A DNA stretch of 64,000 nucleotides from the NCBI GenBank assembly GCA_030619925.1, contig JAUXAL010000008.1, positions 1,509 to 65,508 of the forward strand, written 5' to 3'. The first letter of the stretch is position 1. Every line of letters begins with the position of its first letter. Of the stretch, positions 445 through 10,267 are shown in pieces. Source of the DNA: Phycisphaerae bacterium (GTDB lineage Bacteria > Planctomycetota > Phycisphaerae > Sedimentisphaerales > Anaerobacaceae). Made by a program: the position numbers and the translations under genes. The notes beneath the pieces were generated by a model. The model had not been told where the DNA came from. It searched no databases and saw only the letters and a program-made list of their open reading frames with translations.

Positions 445-1200
445 TCAGTGTGATGTTCCGACATTGATTTTTTCTATCAGGCCTGGTAGTTCGCAAAGCC
501 GGTTTATTTTCCAGGCCCCTTCCGGTACTTTCTTTCCGGCATTAGTGTAAGCAGCCTTTAGAACAGCCTGCATGCCGGTTTTTACCGCAGGTTTAATGTC
601 CTTATCGATGCGGTCTCCTACGTACAATATGTTCTCCAGTGTCTCGCCAATCCTCTTGGCGGCGACTTTGAAGATCTGAGTATTGGGCTTTCGAAAATCA
701 AATTCGTATGAATAAACTCTAACCGTAAAGAAATCTAATATGCCCAATTGTTTTAGATGTTCGTCCAGAGAACAGCCGTTCACAAAAGTGTTGGAAACTA
801 TGCCGAGCTTTAGACCCAAATTTTTAAGTGCCGCTAAAGTCTCTTTTGTTTTCGGCTCAGTCTGACCAACTTGACTCAAAGGTTCATACCAAAGCCACGC
901 TAAGTGCCGCCACTGCTCTGGATTGAGCTTGACCCCCCTTTTTGTGCCGGACTTTCTTAGCAGTGCCAGCGTATCAAAATCCCTTCCGGTTATATTGGAA
1001 AGCCAATGCCATATGCGCAGAGCTATCAGGTTTCGCCAATAGTAGTAATTGAAACCGCCGACCGGCTGGCCTGAATTCTTGAGAAAATCGTACGATGATA
1101 TAGCTCCCTGCCGGAAAAGCCGGGTCGTATTGACTTGGCCGAAGTTCAGCAAAGTATCGCCGAGATCGAACAACACTGCCTTGATCTTTTTATCCGACAA
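445..1200 (-). CDS. HAD-superfamily hydrolase
   Basis: 251-aa ORF with N-terminal VLFDLGDTL (DxD-type motif I) and C-terminal VGDRIDKD motif, both typical of haloacid dehalogenase-like hydrolases. Confidence 0.7.
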   Translation of the reverse strand: MSDKKIKAVLFDLGDTLLNFGQVNTTRLFRQGAISSYDFLKNSGQPVGGFNYYYWRNLIALRIWHWLSNITGRDFDTLALLRKSGTKRGVKLNPEQWRHLAWLWYEPLSQVGQTEPKTKETLAALKNLGLKLGIVSNTFVNGCSLDEHLKQLGILDFFTVRVYSYEFDFRKPNTQIFKVAAKRIGETLENILYVGDRIDKDIKPAVKTGMQAVLKAAYTNAGKKVPEGAWKINRLCELPGLIEKINVGTSH

Positions 1201-1206
1201 TTGCTT

Positions 1207-2538
1207 TTACCTCAATGGCGGCAAATTATCCTCAAAAGATTGCCGTACCCACTCGAACATTTCCTCGTCTGATATCATCGATACCCTGTCGGCTGCATAC
1301 TCGGCGTCGATTCTGTCTTTTATCTTGGTTATACGCCGGTCATGCTTGGGAATTTCAATCTGGTACCTGGTCTCTATCCAGTGTTTGATACCTGCCGCTC
1401 CGGTCTTATCGGTAATTGCCACACCGACAGGGCGGTTGAGCAGCTTTTGGGTATCGAAGCAATTGTATATTTCCTCGTTCTTTAACAAGCCGTCTGCGTG
1501 GATGCCGGCCCGGGTAACATTGAAATCCTTTCCAACCAGCGGATAATTATGTGGAATCTCGAAGCCCGATTCCTTTCTTACGTACTCAGCCAGTTCTGTT
1601 ATCGCCGCATAGTTAACGCCCTCAGTCATTCCTTTCAGTTGGGCGTGTTCAACAACCAGCGCCTCCAGGGGCGGATTGCCTGTTCGCTCGCCACAGCCGA
1701 ATATCGCAGCGTTGGCGGCGCTGCAGCCGTACAGCCATGCCGTCGCAGCGTTTACCTGGACCTTATGCAGATCGTTATGGCCGTGCCATTCGAGCCGTTC
1801 GGACGGAACACCTATTTGTCGAAGCCCATAAATAAGTTTAGGGATGCTCCGCGGCAAAGAAACCCTCGCCCACGGCAGGCCAAATCCGAGCGTATCACAA
1901 AGACGAATCTTGATAGGCTTGTCATATTTTTTGGAAAGTTTCATTAACTCAGCGGCAAAAGGCAGTACAAAGCCTTCATAATCCGCTCGCGTTATATCCT
2001 CAAGGTGGCAGCGCGGAATAACGCTGCTATCTAAAGCGGCTTTGACAATATCAAGATACGCATTCATCGCCTGTGCCCGGGTCTTTCGTAGCTTCAGGAA
2101 TATATGATAATCACTTGCTGAGGTCAGAATGCCGGTTTCGCTGAGCCCCATTTGTGAGACCAGCTTAAAATCGGCCGCTACAGCCCTGATCCAGCCTGTT
2201 ACCTCGGGAAACTTGTAACCTCGCTCTTTGCACAGTTCTACCGCCTCTCTATCACGCTCTGAGTATAGGAAGAACTCACATTGGCGAATCAAACCCGTCC
2301 CCCCGTCTATTTCGTGCAATAAGTCGTAAATCTTAAGGATTTGCTCCGGCCTAAAAGGCGGCCGGGACTGCTGACCGTCGCGGAACGTCGTATCGGTTAT
2401 CCAGATTTCCTCCGGAATATCATACTCAACTTCTCGATTGTCGAATATCAACCGCGGAAATTCAGTGTACGAAAACGTCTGGCGATACAGATTGGGTTTT
2501 TCAACATTTACAAGTCTAAGGTTCTTATTAGCCATCAT
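1207..2538 (-). CDS. HMGL-like aldol-condensing enzyme of the homocitrate / isopropylmalate / Re-citrate synthase family
   Basis: 443-aa ORF with ITDTTFRDGQQ signature and WHGHND metal-site motif. The size and N-terminal extension resemble Re-citrate synthase-type enzymes of anaerobes; subfamily is not resolvable by eye. Confidence 0.7.
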   Translation of the reverse strand: MMANKNLRLVNVEKPNLYRQTFSYTEFPRLIFDNREVEYDIPEEIWITDTTFRDGQQSRPPFRPEQILKIYDLLHEIDGGTGLIRQCEFFLYSERDREAVELCKERGYKFPEVTGWIRAVAADFKLVSQMGLSETGILTSASDYHIFLKLRKTRAQAMNAYLDIVKAALDSSVIPRCHLEDITRADYEGFVLPFAAELMKLSKKYDKPIKIRLCDTLGFGLPWARVSLPRSIPKLIYGLRQIGVPSERLEWHGHNDLHKVQVNAATAWLYGCSAANAAIFGCGERTGNPPLEALVVEHAQLKGMTEGVNYAAITELAEYVRKESGFEIPHNYPLVGKDFNVTRAGIHADGLLKNEEIYNCFDTQKLLNRPVGVAITDKTGAAGIKHWIETRYQIEIPKHDRRITKIKDRIDAEYAADRVSMISDEEMFEWVRQSFEDNLPPLR

Positions 2539-2936
2539 TTATCTCCAAAGTCAGAAGTCAGAAAACAGAAGTCAGAAAAACTCTGCCAATTGTTCATTAA
2601 ACGATAAAGCATAGCATTGACTTCGTCATATCCATTATCCAACCTCTTATGCTCATCCTTCGTAATATACATACAATCTTTTGCAAAGTCTAACCATCCT
2701 CTTGTTTCTTCAGACGATCCTAAAGAATCATTTAGATGCCTAATGAGCACTTGCTCATATTTTCTTTTAGCAAATCCTTCGCGTATATTTATAGCAACTG
2801 ATCTCGATGAACGTCTCATCTGATCTGTTAATGAATATGTTTCTTTTTTAGAAAACTTCTTGGTTATCTCAAATATCTCCATAGCAAGCTGATAAACAAT
2901 CTGATATACTTTCAAATCTTTTACACTCTTAATCAC
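2535..2936 (-). CDS. four-helix-bundle protein (23S rRNA intervening-sequence protein / Avd-like family)
   Basis: DLKVYQIVYQLAMEIFEITKKFSKKETYSLTDQMRRSSRSVAINIREGFAKRK matches the family pattern. The start is set at GTG 2936 because the longer ORF (to 3071) runs through the tRNA-Leu gene. Confidence 0.65.
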   Translation of the reverse strand: MIKSVKDLKVYQIVYQLAMEIFEITKKFSKKETYSLTDQMRRSSRSVAINIREGFAKRKYEQVLIRHLNDSLGSSEETRGWLDFAKDCMYITKDEHKRLDNGYDEVNAMLYRLMNNWQSFSDFCFLTSDFGDK

Positions 2937-2959
2937 CGTTTTCTCTCTGTCTTCTGTAA

Positions 2960-3043
2960 TAGCCGAGGTGGGAGTCGAACCCACATGCCCATTACGGGCA
3001 GGGGATTTTAAGTCCCCAGCGTCTGCCGTTCCGCCACTCGGCC
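2960..3043 (-). tRNA. tRNA-Leu (anticodon UAA), type II with long variable arm
   Basis: Folded by hand: acceptor GGCCGAG/CUCGGCU, anticodon stem GGGGA/UCCCC with loop CUUAAAA, variable arm UGCCCGUAAUGGGCAU, T arm GUGGG-UUCGACU-CCCAC, discriminator A, no encoded CCA. Confidence 0.9.
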
Positions 3044-3235
3044 GAACGCAATAGGCTAACTTATCCGACAAAATTTTGCAAATTGTTTCCCGAAAAACTC
3101 AAAGGAGACAAACGTACAAATTGATCGCGGGAGTTATCCCGAAAAACATTCCATTCAAAACAACATGGACAAGGTCACAACAGCAAAGCTGGGATATAAC
3201 CTACTGTGGTTTGAACCGTGTTTTCGGGCAAGATG

Positions 3236-3607
3236 TTAGCTGAACTCTTTGAGAATCTCTTCGAGACTATCTACCTTTTTGACTAAGGGATGATGGAAAA
3301 ACATTGTTCGGCTTTCCACACCGGTCACGACGCGTATGGGTATCCTAGAGCCAATTGCTATTCCAAGTTCAACATACATTCCGACCCCCCGGTCATGTGG
3401 TAGAATAATGAGCATGTCGGCATCCTCAACACCGCGACTTTCTCTGATTGCAGCCTCTCGAGACGCCTCCGCATTCTTATCGTAAGGTCTAAGATGATCA
3501 ATTGTCGTCCAATCGAAAGTGATTTCATGCCCCGCATCTTTGAGTGCCTTTATCGCTTCTCTGACACTCCCCTCTACACCAACTTTACCAGATACAAAGA
3601 ATTTCAT
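3236..3607 (-). CDS. nucleoside 2-deoxyribosyltransferase-like (NDT/Rcl fold) protein
   Basis: 123-aa ORF. MKFFVSG N-terminus, ADMLIILP strand and GVGMYVELGIAIG motif resemble the D-x-G-x-x-x-E-x-G core of the NDT family. Last gene of a low-GC three-gene cassette. Confidence 0.5.
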   Translation of the reverse strand: MKFFVSGKVGVEGSVREAIKALKDAGHEITFDWTTIDHLRPYDKNAEASREAAIRESRGVEDADMLIILPHDRGVGMYVELGIAIGSRIPIRVVTGVESRTMFFHHPLVKKVDSLEEILKEFS

Positions 3608-3659
3608 CTTGTGGCAACCTAAGTCTGAAACTCGATTTTTCTTGTATGTTAATCAGATG

Positions 3660-4001
3660 TCACTTACCTACTGCTGTACGTATCTGCTGACCTTTCTCTT
3701 CCATCTGGGGGTCTCCAGACTTTTCTAAGGTTTCCGCAAGCGCAATTAAACTCTCCACGAGATCTTCCGAAGAAGCAGAAAACGTACCTTCCTCCTTTGC
3801 ATTTTCCAAGGCCTCCAATAGAACTTCAGTATAGCTCGCCAGCAATGCTTTGGGAATCATGTCTGGATATTTACAGAGACGAATCAGTCTTTCTGATAAT
3901 TGGCGTTCCAGTTCTTTTGTTCCATATAGCCATTTTTGCATCATAGGATCTGATTGGGAAGCTTTTTCCATAGATGCGGTAAATTCTTTCAGATGAGTCA
4001 T
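3660..4001 (-). CDS. small acidic all-helical hypothetical protein
   Basis: 113-aa ORF with GGAGG ribosome-binding site 7 nt upstream. It starts 17 nt after the stop of the nucleotidyltransferase gene. No recognisable motif and no HEPN Rx4-6H. Confidence 0.5.
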   Translation of the reverse strand: MTHLKEFTASMEKASQSDPMMQKWLYGTKELERQLSERLIRLCKYPDMIPKALLASYTEVLLEALENAKEEGTFSASSEDLVESLIALAETLEKSGDPQMEEKGQQIRTAVGK

Positions 4002-4018
4002 TGTCTATTACCTCCATA

Positions 4019-5068
4019 TTAAAACACTGCGTATTTTTGAAAAGTATTTTTGAACAGGGCGTCTTTATAGAATATCTGCTCCAAACTGGATTGAATGTTA
4101 TCACCCATTACTTGACATTGCTCTTTTAACTCTTCGCGGCTCTTGCTATCTCCACTGATGCATTTGAGTACATCTCGTTTATCTCCTGAAAGGATGCCTA
4201 TGAATTGGTCGTAGTTTTGCAGCAAAACTTTCATTGCTCTTTGTGATTCTTTGGACATCAAGTCAACATGCTTCGCTATCTGGGCCAATGGAGGTGCTAC
4301 AAGCGATTTCTTGAGATAGCTTTTGAGATGATCGTTAGTTTTTATTTTCTGATCGGTCAAAAGAACCGTTGCTAATGGACCGGCAAATAGAATCTTCCGT
4401 GTTATTCTTAGTTTTGCGAGCCGCAAATTTGAGTCACTACCGCGCCACCGCTTAGTCCCAAAATCAACCGCCATAGTTCTCCAGTACCTGACCAAATCGT
4501 TCAACAAGTACCTCGGAACCTTTGCCGGGCTGCCTTTACTGCGATTGGGTGGAAGATAGTCTGCACAGTATCTTTCCAAAATGTTATCAATGACTGTCGT
4601 ATGGGTCGTTCCCAAAGTAACTGGCTTTGACTCGCTTAAGAGAAGAATACGTCGCGTCATATTAGCATTTGTGTCGGATTCCAATCCTATACTCTCATAT
4701 AGGTTCGCTGCCACGACAATTTCGCTGAAAACATTTTGGCCTCCTCTTTCTCCAATAGGGAAATCCTTCTCCACTCTTTCCATAGCCTCAATTAGCTTGC
4801 GAGTTGTGTTTGGCGAAGCCCCATTTTGCAAGACATAGTAGTCGCAGTCCGACTGAAAAGAGCATTCTTCCCTGGCGATAGACCCGCACAAGACTATGTC
4901 AGTGTTTTCAAGATCATCAGGCTTGTCCTTTGAAAACTCCTTCTTCAGAGCATTCTCGTATCCACTTAACAATCGTTCTGAGGTTACCGACGCTTCCTTC
5001 AGTGCAGGCAATTCTATGCCTATCAATTTTGCTGCTTTGGCCAAATCACTGTGCATCGAAACCCACAA
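4019..5068 (-). CDS. pol-beta superfamily nucleotidyltransferase with C-terminal helical domain
   Basis: 349-aa ORF with the minimal NTase signature CGSIAREECSFQSDCDYYVL (G-S ... D-x-D) followed by a roughly 220-aa helical region. The ORF-track start is TTG; the first ATG is at 5056. Confidence 0.6.
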   Translation of the reverse strand: MWVSMHSDLAKAAKLIGIELPALKEASVTSERLLSGYENALKKEFSKDKPDDLENTDIVLCGSIAREECSFQSDCDYYVLQNGASPNTTRKLIEAMERVEKDFPIGERGGQNVFSEIVVAANLYESIGLESDTNANMTRRILLLSESKPVTLGTTHTTVIDNILERYCADYLPPNRSKGSPAKVPRYLLNDLVRYWRTMAVDFGTKRWRGSDSNLRLAKLRITRKILFAGPLATVLLTDQKIKTNDHLKSYLKKSLVAPPLAQIAKHVDLMSKESQRAMKVLLQNYDQFIGILSGDKRDVLKCISGDSKSREELKEQCQVMGDNIQSSLEQIFYKDALFKNTFQKYAVF

Positions 5069-5538
5069 TCCCTTCGGTGAAACACAAAATCCCTTAGGTA
5101 TCAGCTCGTAAAAAACTCATCAGAACTTGTTGAAACAATAAATAACTTTAGGCTAACAACACCTATTTTAATAAATTTAGTTGAGTTGGCCGTCAAAGTC
5201 AAACATATATTCTGCGTAAGTATCAATAATCATCAAAAAATTATCGCAGGCGAAATCAAATTCAAAGTCACGTTTTACGCTGAAAGACCTGCTTCTTGAT
5301 GATCTACACCCAGACCACACGTACAACTCTTTTTCCAATCCCTATTTAGGGATAGAAGTGTCCGGTCTCTATTTGTACTCCACTCACGATGAATTTCGAC
5401 CGACCTAACCCAAGCTCGAATGGTATTCTTAACTGCAAAAACGCAGTTTTTGGTATGTCTTAGGGGGGTATGGTGCGATTTTATTGCAAGTCGAAGTGGC
5501 TTTGACGGAGGATAGTTGGAAGATGAGCGAGAAAAAAA

Positions 5539-6948
5539 TCAGTGAAGAAATTTCTTGAAGCCAAATCGAAGCCTGAATCGACAAAGAAAATCTGCTATTC
5601 GCTGCCATACCTGGGCCAGGCTGACTCTCCAGCCAAGTGCTTTTAGCAGTGAATCGTTATCCGCTAATGAACGTGCCTTCTTAATCCTCTCGGCAGCGTT
5701 GGCCAGTCTGCCCATTGCCAGGTAAACAAAGGCCGAATCTCTTAAAGCCAAAACGTGCCCGCTCTGGATGTCAAGCGTGTGGGCAAAAAACTCTGCAGCA
5801 TCCCCAAGCACCCCTTTTATAGCCCTAACAACTCCAAGATAGTAATAGGCATCTGCGTTAACGCGATCGATATCAACAGCCTGCAGCAGGCACTGTGTTG
5901 CATAATCGAGCTCATCCATTCTCAAAAACATCGACCCCATAGAAACCAAAATATTCGCATCTTCAGGTGCCAGCTTCAATTCAGAAATCAGATAAGCTCT
6001 GCCCTTTTGTTCTTGGCCTTTCATTAATGCATACTGGGCCAGTCTATAGCATGGCCCTGCGAGTGTATTGTCCTTTTGCAATGCCTGACTAAATAGTTGC
6101 ACTGCCTGCTCATAGTCATTGTTGCTAAAAGCAATCTCCCCAAGATAGAACAAAGCGACTCCTGATGCCGGCTCAAGTTCGAGTATTCTGTTGAACTTTT
6201 CCTTTGCCGATTCGATCTCGCCGGTCTCAAGCATAAACAAACCGAAATCGAGAATAACATCAACGTCACCCGGGTTAACACGAAGCTCTGCCAGGAAATG
6301 CTCACGACTGTGTTTGTTGTCACCCGCGGACCAGTAGGCTTGAGCAATTCGATAATTGATTTGTGGGTGACTCGGCTCAAGTTCAGCCGTTCTTAGCCAG
6401 CAGCGAATGGCTTTTTTGTACTGGCCCCGAGCAAAAAGACTGTTGCCGATATTATAGTAGCACAACGCACAGTCCGGCTTTATCTGCTGGGCGAGGTAAA
6501 AAATCTGCTCAGCTAAATCGTGTAGGCCCATTTCAGTATAGGCAATTATTCGATTACAGTAGCACGGTTCAAACGCCGGATCTAATTCCTCGATAAGCTC
6601 GAAAGTTTCGATAGCCAGATCATAGTAGCACGTGCGGGTATAATCGACCGCCAGCGAGTTTAATATCTCTAAATCATCAGGGTTTAGCTGCAGGGCGATT
6701 TCGTATTCACTTGTCGCATCGTCAAACTGATTTATGGAATCCAACGTCAGCGCCTTGTTGAAATGCCACGAACTGTTGGAAGGGTTTATCTCAAGGGCCG
6801 TTTCTAATTCGGCAAGAGCTTGTGACATTTTGCCGTCTTCGTAAAGCTCAAAGGCTTTCCGCGCCGACTGTTCACCCTTTTCATAGGAGCCGAATTCCAT
6901 ATCTTCAAAAAGCATAGTCGCACCTTTACCCCGTCTATCACCCAGCAA
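5539..6948 (-). CDS. tetratricopeptide (TPR) repeat protein
   Basis: 469-aa ORF built of repeated 34-aa A/Y/L-rich units (e.g. ALELNPSNSSWHFNKA, ALQLNPDDLEILNSLA, AELEPSHPQINYRIA). Confidence 0.75.
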   Translation of the reverse strand: MLGDRRGKGATMLFEDMEFGSYEKGEQSARKAFELYEDGKMSQALAELETALEINPSNSSWHFNKALTLDSINQFDDATSEYEIALQLNPDDLEILNSLAVDYTRTCYYDLAIETFELIEELDPAFEPCYCNRIIAYTEMGLHDLAEQIFYLAQQIKPDCALCYYNIGNSLFARGQYKKAIRCWLRTAELEPSHPQINYRIAQAYWSAGDNKHSREHFLAELRVNPGDVDVILDFGLFMLETGEIESAKEKFNRILELEPASGVALFYLGEIAFSNNDYEQAVQLFSQALQKDNTLAGPCYRLAQYALMKGQEQKGRAYLISELKLAPEDANILVSMGSMFLRMDELDYATQCLLQAVDIDRVNADAYYYLGVVRAIKGVLGDAAEFFAHTLDIQSGHVLALRDSAFVYLAMGRLANAAERIKKARSLADNDSLLKALGWRVSLAQVWQRIADFLCRFRLRFGFKKFLH

Positions 6949-9216: not shown

Positions 9217-9337
9217 CCGAAGTTTCGATATTGGTGCTCATAAAAGCCGCAAGCACAGTCGGGTCCCAATCTCCGCTCCGCGTTTTCGCGCCGACAAGCT
9301 TACCCCTGCGTAGTATGTGTTTTGGCCAGGGAAAAAC

Positions 9338-9458
9338 CATCCCCAAAGCCTTCGGCTTTGAGGCTGCCACCCAAATCGAAAATTTAAAATTTGAAATTCC
9401 CGGTGTGGCAGCCTCAAGCGCAGGACTCTAGCAAAGCGGAGTCCAAGCTTGGGGATGG
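9338..9458. repeat. about 120-nt imperfect nested inverted repeat in a 350-nt ORF-free spacer
   Basis: ccatccccaaagc (9338-9350) pairs with gcttggggatgg (9447-9458). gaggctgccac (9360-9370) pairs with gtggcagcctc (9405-9415). Inner hairpin ggactc...gagtcc. Confidence 0.6.
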
Positions 9459-9568
9459 CCATTTAAGCCACACATCGCTAAACACGTACCCTGCGTAGGC
9501 AGGGGGCAGCTAACGTCATCGCGATCATAACGCAGATAAAACGGTCCCGCCGAACGACTTCGGCGAGC

Positions 9569-10267
9569 TTAGTCGGACCAGCTTTTCTCTGAGATTAACT
9601 GTTGTGGGTTTTGCAATTGTTCTGCGATAAAGGCTAAAAACTGCGCCGCGTAGTTTCCGTTAATAACTCTGTGGTCAACTGCCAGGGACAGGCCGACCAT
9701 TTTTCGTACTGCTATTTTATCATTTTCGCCCCGATACATCGCCGTGGGCACTACATTACCGACGGCCAATATAGTGCTGGTTGGCGGCGGTACGATTCCC
9801 AAAAAGGAATCGATGCCGTAGGCGCCCAGATTGCTCAGCGCTATAGTTTCGCCTTCTATATCTTCAAGTGTCAATCGATTATCACGTGCTTTATCGGTCA
9901 ACGACGTTTCCTCGCGGGCAATTTCTGCCAACGTTTTCTTGCCGGCATCCTTCACCACCGGCACAACAAGGCCTTGCGGAGCGCTGACTGCAAAGCCGAC
10001 ATTGACGCGCTGGGCAATCCTTATATTGTCACCGTCAAGCTTACCTGCCGCGAGAGGATATTTTTGCACCGCCAGCCCCAGGGCACGAATATAGAAAGCG
10101 TTTGTGGTTATTTTGATGCCCAATGATTTTCTAAGTCTGGGCCGGATGGCCATTAGTTCGGTAACGTCTGTTCTTGACTCAACGTAAAAACAGGCCTTAC
10201 TCAGCTTGGATTCCAGCATCCTTTTGCCGGCGAGTTTCTGGATTCTGGTTAGTGGGATATGACGCAT
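9569..10267 (-). CDS. stand-alone 2-oxoacid dehydrogenase E2-type acyltransferase catalytic domain
   Basis: 232-aa ORF with SNLGAYG and LSLAVDHRVINGNYAAQF (the DHRxxDG active-site region, here with N for D). No lipoyl or subunit-binding domain. Confidence 0.7.
   Translation of the reverse strand: MRHIPLTRIQKLAGKRMLESKLSKACFYVESRTDVTELMAIRPRLRKSLGIKITTNAFYIRALGLAVQKYPLAAGKLDGDNIRIAQRVNVGFAVSAPQGLVVPVVKDAGKKTLAEIAREETSLTDKARDNRLTLEDIEGETIALSNLGAYGIDSFLGIVPPPTSTILAVGNVVPTAMYRGENDKIAVRKMVGLSLAVDHRVINGNYAAQFLAFIAEQLQNPQQLISEKSWSD

Follow-up and report, generated by a model that had tools for sequence, protein, structure and literature searches.

We analysed a stretch of 64,000 nt from contig JAUXAL010000008.1 of a Phycisphaerae bacterium (assembly GCA_030619925.1), hereafter the window, in whose coordinates all positions are given; the loci and contigs used for comparison are labelled with L- and P-numbers. 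The window contains a cassette of three genes, encoding a nucleotidyltransferase (NTase), a small acidic protein and a protein with the fold of nucleoside 2-deoxyribosyltransferases (NDT) that resembles N-glycosidases (Table 1). A first-pass annotation had described them as co-oriented and tightly spaced, and this holds: the open reading frames (ORFs) lie on the minus strand at 4019-5068, 3660-4001 and 3236-3607, with 17 nt between the NTase and small genes and 52 nt between the small and NDT genes. The NTase most likely starts at the ATG at 5056, since its homologs begin with MHxDL and are 344-346 aa long. Upstream of it, the AT-rich spacer of 470 nt described earlier was found at 5069-5538 (GC content 38.9%), and it includes two short ORFs that are probably spurious.

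Table 1. Positions of the cassette genes and associated features in the window.
Feature	Position	Strand	Remarks
Nucleotidyltransferase (NTase)	4019..5056	-	345 aa; start given by the ORF finder, TTG 5068
Small acidic protein	3660..4001	-	113 aa; GGAGG ribosome-binding site
NDT-fold N-glycosidase-like protein	3236..3607	-	123 aa
Promoter-like site TTGACT-17 nt-TAAATT	5174..5202	-	consensus scan; ~118 nt upstream of the NTase ATG
Conserved leader and upstream region	5057..5265	-	DNA alignment with L001-L004; upstream boundary approximate
tRNA-Leu(TAA)	2960-3043

The cassette has a GC content of 43.4%, whereas the window as a whole stands at 49.2% and the neighbouring genes at 47-48%; this puts the cassette at the 2.7th percentile among windows of the same size. 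The GC content at third codon positions is 37-46% in the cassette versus 49-55%. The cassette is indeed lower in GC, as first estimated by eye, while the contrast given then (32-40% versus more than 50%) was overstated.

The trio was recovered in the same order and with the same spacing from at least 11 independent loci, mostly in Phycisphaerae/Sedimentisphaerales and one in Nitrospirales. Undisrupted, collinear copies are those of the window, L001, L003, L004, L006, L007, L008, L081, L082, L099/L100 and the P0066 contig, and across loci the two intergenic distances are 9-31 nt and 38-53 nt. In a search seeded with the NTase (L001-L004, L006-L008, L081, L082, L099/L100 and the P0066 contig), every relative of at least 40% identity with sufficient flanking sequence was followed downstream by the small and NDT genes, in that order. 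An independent scan of JGI metagenomes, seeded with the NDT, returned 36 loci at least 55% identical to the window protein. The small gene was present directly upstream in 30 of the 32 loci with enough upstream sequence and the NTase in 21 of 22; both loci lacking the small gene belong to one phage group. Strict co-occurrence in the NTase- and NDT-seeded searches bears out that the trio is conserved in the neighbourhoods of its homologs.

As proposed earlier, the 113-aa partner is acidic (pI 4.86, net charge -6.4). Searches of Pfam, PADLOC, NCBIfam and PHROGs gave it no match above threshold, and none below E 0.5 was found among PDB sequences. Its family comprises only 43 clusters (38-169 aa) among 1.84 billion representative proteins searched. 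That it might occur elsewhere as a fused domain was rejected, all 43 clusters being standalone, and so was an origin as a detached piece of PDC-M70B, a protein introduced below (hhalign probability 0.4%). The family signature is W24 ... [I/L]P50-x6-Y57, with W24 conserved in 38, P50 in 39 and Y57 in 37 of 40 members; Y57 was dismissed as a strictly invariant tyrosine because two of the 40 carry phenylalanine there. Moreover, the small protein is the fastest-evolving member of the trio (22-37% identity, versus 40-56% for the NTase and 52-73% for the NDT) and the NDT is the slowest, a ranking that is consistent between loci. The small gene is in every case located directly downstream of the NTase. 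At loci where the NTase is 36-39% identical (L095, L096 and L072), a homolog of the small protein is kept and the NDT is absent. Because the small protein tracks the NTase where the NDT is missing, it is likely the NTase's own partner.

Several loci carry disrupted versions of the trio. Compared with L082, L083 shows a clean 315-bp deletion with AAGAA microhomology (9286-9290 versus 9286-9601), which removes the 3' third of the small gene and the first ~52 codons of the NDT; the NTase protein is identical in both. This deletion was seen in one of the 24 contigs read that carry this NTase. Conversely, the NTase of L002 has a premature TAG at codon ~179, where the near-identical L001 has CAG, and that of L113 is broken at about the same profile position, while the NTases of L112 and L133 are frameshifted; the small and NDT genes are intact in all four. 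In L072, the NTase is a pseudogene. The disrupted NTases of L002, L113, L112 and L133 could be real decay or assembly error. Since the NDT is lost in L083 and the NTase is broken in the other four, each enzyme seems to be harmless even without the other. This speaks against a toxin that is always active and has to be neutralised by an enzyme, whichever of the two is cast as the toxin, and fits a triggered or conditional toxicity.

The genes that flank the trio differ between loci. When the window DNA is aligned with L001-L004, similarity extends over ~200 nt ahead of the ATG before the sequences diverge. A promoter block, TTGACTTTGAyGGyCAACTCAACTAAATT, hardly varies in front of the trio in L001-L004, although the flanking genes differ. 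At the other end, homology between loci stops at the NDT stop codon. The GC content of the cassette is below that of its flanks at 7 of 9 related loci, for example 34.9 versus 50.0% in L008 and 45.6 versus 66.2% in L100, and is about equal to it in L001 and L007. L100/L099 gives the clearest compositional sign of recent transfer; here, the trio (4637-6475) is inserted between an IclR regulator and pyrR/pyrB/pyrC/carA, and in L099 two of the three genes escaped the gene caller. NTases of the trio type, at 39% identity or more, were found in only 8 of 185,579 GTDB species representatives. No long direct repeats bracket the cassette, and no integrase was found among its annotated neighbours. A tRNA-targeted island was considered and rejected: the trio is on the 5' side of the tRNA-Leu, and only the syntenic L003 shares this tRNA. 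A structured non-coding RNA partner of the retron or ToxIN type was likewise rejected, given that the tRNA is the only Rfam match above threshold in 2300-5800 and that there are no tandem repeats inside the cassette; the leader and upstream region (5057..5265) matched no Rfam family at threshold.

Defence and mobile-element genes were observed next to several trios. In L082, a resolvase and a transposase are found on one side and a type IIG restriction-modification (RM) system with DarT/DarG on the other. L081 adjoins a transposase and an MjaI-type RM system, L004 adjoins an RmrA/CapP-like regulator, and in L141 a type III restriction enzyme (E 2e-295) is encoded ~1 kb away. The association of the trio with defence by neighbourhood is suggestive.

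We then turned to the proteins themselves. The NTase carries the pol-beta signature GS...DxD named in the first-pass annotation, as G62-S63 and D74-x-D76, which do not vary in 27 homologs; D132, the C-terminal Y346..F349 and many positions in the C-terminal half are also invariant. The AlphaFold2 model (predicted local distance difference test score, pLDDT, 90.4; predicted template-modelling (TM) score 0.89) includes the expected large helical C-terminal domain of ~200 aa. In Pfam, we obtained only a sub-threshold match to NTP_transf_2. Among solved structures, the leading whole-chain Foldseek matches are the GlnE N-terminal domain 1v4a (E 1.6e-4), DrrA 6yx5 (E 2.9e-4) and the GlnE adenylylation domain 3k7d; the GlnE and DrrA matches overall have E values from 1.6e-4 to 1e-2, a probability of 1.0, a TM score of ~0.5 and 11-14% identity. 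Aminoglycoside NTases, HalB and MNT antitoxins rank after them, with matches to the core only, and the sequence profile ranks the relatives as the structure search does, DrrA included. A match to GlnD or GlnE had been named as an observation that would speak against a conflict system. The likeness exists at the level of the fold and goes no further: the NCBIfam GlnD model PRK03381 scores 13.7 bits against a cut-off of 631, and the NTase is therefore not the housekeeping GlnD/GlnE enzyme.

The nucleotide-signal logic first suggested for the cassette was not sustained by these folds, since the NTase is not CD-NTase-like, its nearest folds being the protein-AMPylating GlnE and DrrA, and the NDT has no ligand-sensor domain. 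It is very unlikely that the NTase makes a diffusible nucleotide or oligonucleotide that switches the NDT on or off, with the small protein as receptor or adaptor, along the lines of CBASS, Hailong or Panoptes. Signalling defence systems are indeed built around a conserved NTase whose outputs can be exchanged, and the NTase core weakly matches HalB of Hailong by sequence and fold. However, the HalB matches have E values of at least 0.02 and a TM score of ~0.2, and none of the cassette proteins matched a CBASS, CD-NTase or mCpol model in PADLOC. Furthermore, the best 50 fold matches of the NTase, led by GlnE, DrrA and aminoglycoside NTases, include no CD-NTase, and Pfam and PADLOC gave no SAVED, CARF, SLOG or STING-type sensor domain in either partner. 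Neither partner matched HalA, the Hailong channel, or any other PADLOC model, and the charge of the small partner is that given above.

For the 123-aa protein, the AlphaFold2 model (pLDDT 88.8; flavodoxin-like NDT fold) and Foldseek support the NDT likeness that had been read from the sequence. Its structural neighbours are led by the CMP N-glycosidases BcmB and MilB, true NDTs and the dNMP N-glycosidase DNPH1 (probability 1.0, TM score 0.6-0.7), and viral NDTs also match. In Pfam, the window protein reaches PF05014 with E 4.9e-5 and 23.9 bits (gathering score 28.8), its L008 ortholog scores 29.3 bits, a Nitrospirales homolog is above the threshold, and most homologs carry a precomputed PF05014 match. 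The catalytic-type Glu80, in GVGMYVELG (G-x-G-M-Y-V-E-L-G), is invariant in sets of 26 and of 30 sequences, and HMMER aligns it with the G-x-x-x-E-x-G motif of NDTs. The motifs G26-H27-x-x-T30-F31-D32-W33 and L39-x-P41-Y42 are also invariant.

The NTase extends into a wider family, in which its partner genes are swapped. It matches PADLOC model PDC-M70A at 8.3e-66, with residues 11-349 on profile positions 10-355 of 355. PDC-M70 is a two-gene 'phage defence candidate' of PADLOC v2 (cassette CAS_00217; Payne et al. 2024, bioRxiv 10.1101/2024.01.29.577857). Its nomination rested on 'guilt by embedding', the genes being found inside BREX, DISARM and type I RM systems. The window NTase thus resembles PDC-M70A over its full length, and as strongly as actinobacterial genes beside a true PDC-M70B do (3.7e-67). 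The difference lies in the partner: in place of PDC-M70B, an endonuclease-IV-like TIM barrel of the xylose isomerase type, the window has the small and NDT genes, which match nothing in PADLOC at E up to 1. A tblastn search of the whole window with two PDC-M70B proteins gave nothing below E = 1, and since the defining B gene was sought and is absent, the trio is not a PDC-M70 member. TIM barrels of the PDC-M70B type accompany distant NTases (at most 35% identity) in Solirubrobacterales, a Cytophagaceae metagenome-assembled genome and a Mesorhizobium plasmid, where the barrel is annotated as a sugar phosphate isomerase/epimerase; on a Sinorhizobium plasmid, a 240-aa hypothetical gene occupies its position.

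Other partners were found on plasmids. On the Mycobacterium sp. SMC-8 plasmid NZ_CP079868.1 (L105, 4863-6352), a relative of the NTase is convergent and overlapping with a HIT-domain gene, and the two are flanked by an AAA ATPase and a type I RM system (HsdR/HsdS), the type of context that PADLOC used for nomination. A HIT-like ORF was also recognised by eye from the sequence in L072. On the E. coli plasmid pISHS7_5 (NZ_CP092257.1; L104/L108), a gene for an HD protein (4155..684) precedes an NTase gene (711-1706; A1 profile E 1e-51). This ColE1-type plasmid measures 4.5 kb, has the HD-NTase pair as its sole annotated cargo besides rop, and the pair occurs in one of 5,426 complete E. coli genomes. 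An upstream ORF of pISHS7_5 was considered as a homolog of the small protein, a proposal that found no support, RefSeq treating it as part of the HD-domain protein. Distant plasmid-borne relatives of the NTase adjoin SIR2, AbiEii or type I RM genes.

The NDT also occurs alone in phages. Orphan NDTs that are ~60-65% identical to the window protein were found in four T4-like phage contigs (L084/L085, equal to L136; L101/L102; L103; L138). L084/L085 has a T4-type portal gene, a Cpn10 gene is present in all four contigs (three by annotation, L138 by tblastx), and L101 and L103 also carry a DNA methylase and a DAHP-synthase-like gene. In a neighbour-joining tree that included three phage sequences and was drawn without bootstrap support, these (P0203, P0192 and P0182) form one clade nested in the trio clade, with the trio members L008 and P0202 outside. 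A more distant NDT family with the motif GHxITFDWT (30-36% identity) is common in IMG/VR contigs. We found no NDT in cultured phages (INPHARED), no match of the three window proteins in PHROGs and no NTase among IMG/VR viral contigs. Two further genes of L084/L085, for a dGTP_diPhyd_N (MazZ-like) protein and for another member of the NDT clan (DUF1937), hint at a modified-nucleotide lifestyle.

The reading that we favour, with a probability of about 0.4, is that the region is an accessory operon of ~2.0 kb, complete in itself and mobile between genomes, which most likely acts as a conflict module, either in anti-phage defence or as a conditional toxin. The first-pass annotation had already called it a candidate conflict system, and this proposal fits the strict co-occurrence, the changing contexts, the usually low GC content, the defence and mobile neighbours at several loci and the PDC-M70A match. 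Gene content, folds, intact catalytic residues, co-occurrence, mobility, partner swapping and the orphan NDT of phages are observed; from them we infer the defence role, the direction of regulation and the substrates of both enzymes. In the mechanism that we propose, the NTase and the small protein would together sense and regulate, and the NDT enzyme would be the nucleotide-degrading output, an N-glycosidase that would cut the base from nucleotides of the NAD+, ATP or (d)NMP type and so deplete what the phage needs. In an uninfected cell, the small protein would restrain the NDT enzyme. Once triggered, the NTase would transfer a nucleotidyl group from an NTP to the small protein or the NDT enzyme, modifying a partner protein as GlnE, DrrA and MntA do, and this nucleotidylylation would release or activate the glycosidase.

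Several observations weigh against this reading. About 10 of ~15 distinct trio contexts, the window among them, have plain housekeeping flanks. In phages, this NDT occurs on its own and does no apparent harm, and the protein consists of a single domain of 123 aa to which no regulatory module is attached. The phenylalanine found at position 57 in some small proteins weakens this position as a modification site. Variants with a disrupted NTase outnumber those with a disrupted NDT by 4 to 1, a difference that is not significant given the gene lengths, the counts being small and errors in metagenome-assembled genomes being possible. PDC-M70 itself is no more than a candidate, one of 145 in the paper that nominated it (bioRxiv 10.1101/2024.01.29.577857), and was not mentioned in any main text among the papers searched. 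Finally, the Solirubrobacterales pair of NTase and TIM barrel is found in dozens of species, in conserved neighbourhoods that do not look like defence.

These flanks and neighbourhoods also speak for a role outside defence, as an accessory module of nucleotide or nucleoside metabolism, in which a GlnE-like enzyme would regulate its partner by reversible nucleotidylylation or both enzymes would make or salvage a modified nucleoside. GlnE regulates glutamine synthetase, and it is this metabolic regulator to which the fold of the NTase is closest; the nearest structures of the NDT include biosynthetic and salvage enzymes (MilB, BcmB, NDT, DNPH1), and NDT-like genes serve phage nucleotide metabolism. 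We nevertheless regard such a role as unlikely, in view of the sporadic and rare distribution, the GC mismatch and the changing positions of the trio. Moreover, no pathway genes are conserved beside it, defence and mobile-element neighbours recur, and the fast evolution of the small partner would be unusual for a metabolic regulator.

The partner enzymes and the phage copies bear on another alternative, a toxin-antitoxin system with the logic of DarTG. Here, the NTase would be a toxic writer that nucleotidylylates a protein or nucleic acid of the cell or of the phage, the partner hydrolase would remove or destroy the adduct, the small protein would gate the NTase, and the phage NDT would be a counter-defence. 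All partners found for the NTase family (NDT, HD, HIT and EndoIV-like) are hydrolases acting on nucleotide moieties, with neither pore-forming proteins nor classical nucleases among them. In GlnD, uridylyl groups are removed by the HD domain, and HIT enzymes catalyse de-adenylylation. NTase pseudogenes with the small and NDT genes kept resemble the decay that leaves an orphan antitoxin, and the orphan NDTs nested in the trio clade in four T4-like contigs parallel the phage-borne orphan DarG-like antitoxins known as counter-defence (PMC11825919). However, the L083 NTase is identical to that of L082 though the NDT is destroyed, which is hard to square with the NDT as a required antidote; a phosphodiester-linked NMP adduct is not directly reversible by an N-glycosidase; and the NDT is the most conserved of the three proteins. 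We hold this alternative to be somewhat unlikely.

Going beyond the conflict module as favoured above, the NTase family might be the writer of an unrecognised immune modification by reversible nucleotidylylation, with the swappable partners (NDT, HD, HIT, endonuclease-IV-like) as erasers or processors and the 113-aa protein as a PII-like switch nucleotidylylated at its conserved aromatic position; the T4-like phage lineage might then have taken the NDT as counter-defence. This broader proposal is speculative and, in our judgement, improbable.

Immunity in Planctomycetota, a poorly studied group, is little known. If the trio protects against phages, it would represent a defence architecture built on a protein nucleotidyltransferase of the GlnE/DrrA type, instead of a cGAS-like or minimal NTase. 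It would link NDT, HD, HIT and EndoIV-like proteins as alternative partners of one regulator family, and would give the PADLOC candidate PDC-M70 a wider family context along with testable mechanistic hypotheses. The orphan NDT of phages offers a ready test of a new pair of defence and counter-defence, and the HD-NTase pair of pISHS7_5 a tractable laboratory model for the NTase family.

Turning to the surroundings of the cassette, we did not confirm that nothing metabolic flanks it: an HMGL-like synthase and a HAD hydrolase are encoded beyond the tRNA, and a tetratricopeptide repeat (TPR) gene, ribH and nusB on the opposite side, ribH and nusB having been identified from ORF translations and from the Pfam matches of the syntenic L003. 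Given that the flanks differ at other loci, these metabolic genes are probably without functional link to the cassette. The adjacency to tRNA-Leu noted at first is incidental, this tRNA being common only to L003. L117 has the same flanks as the window and L003. The HMGL-like synthase was considered as a functional partner and rejected, as it is near the trio in the window (1207-2538, minus strand), L003 and L117 and absent from the other trio contexts; L117 has two HMGL-like matches among its scanned neighbours. A gene of this homocitrate/isopropylmalate synthase family is also found beside the NTase in ~11 Solirubrobacterales loci (e.g., L044, L056 and L058-L060), the actinobacterial gene being 25% identical and directly downstream of the NTase. 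Because the gene is missing from the other trio contexts, its proximity is probably a coincidence. Between the TPR gene and the cassette, the window has the 470-nt spacer, versus an extra ORF in L003 (3441-5513) and L117 (3986-5791); this ORF, of 600-690 aa and secreted-looking by its N-terminal sequence, marks a variable spot adjoining the cassette.

Directly 3' of the tRNA-Leu, at 2535-2936 on the minus strand, the window encodes a member of the 23S rRNA-intervening-sequence protein family (four-helix bundle; PF05635, 9.8e-32), in a gene with a very low GC content of 33.6%. Its listed ORF start at 3071 overlaps the tRNA, and the GTG at 2936 is likelier. In L003, this gene is missing and ~100 nt separate the tRNA-Leu from the HMGL-like synthase; the gene may thus well be a small insertion of its own at the tRNA 3' end. 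At its own 3' end, near the start of the HMGL-like gene, the 14-mer CAGAAGTCAGAAAA is perfectly duplicated in tandem (2552-2579).

Among known systems, type VII toxin-antitoxin pairs of the HepT/MntA type also encode a GS...DxD pol-beta NTase beside a small enzyme, and MNT structures are among the weak sequence and fold matches of the window NTase. MntA is reported to neutralise its partner by AMPylation (PMC7641770). The window NTase differs in having 345 aa with a GlnE/DrrA-type helical domain, versus ~100-150 aa for a minimal MNT, and MNT structures align to its core only (~85-170 alignment columns). Pfam and PADLOC gave no HEPN domain in the small and NDT proteins, and their sequences lack the Rx4-6H motif. 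Moreover, the NTase-null variants with an intact NDT argue against the NTase as a required antitoxin.

Retron Ec86 (Eco1) is likewise a three-part system with an NDT-fold enzyme as output, which defends by depletion of adenine derivatives. We found no reverse transcriptase in the cassette or the adjacent ORFs, there being no other long ORF within 2535-5538, and no msr/msd-type RNA among Rfam matches at threshold in 2300-5800. The regulator here is instead an NTase with a small protein, and the retron effector is not among the best 50 fold matches of the NDT.

GlnE, GlnD and DrrA/SidM provide the best whole-protein matches of the window NTase among solved structures, and the HD-NTase pair of pISHS7_5 mirrors the NTase and HD arrangement of GlnD. 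In contrast to GlnE and GlnD, the window NTase is a single module, with no ACT, HD or second NTase domain, and it is rare, mobile and not beside glnA or glnB. With DarTG, the trio shares the pairing of a transferase with a hydrolase and the presence of an orphan hydrolase-type gene in T4-like phages; ADP-ribosylation and a macrodomain in DarTG stand against a predicted nucleotidylyl transfer and an N-glycosidase here. The statement that the trio is not a named system stands, as PADLOC v2 has no models for two of its three genes and the trio was not found in the literature searched. Judged from its sequences, it is an undescribed variant of a candidate conflict system.

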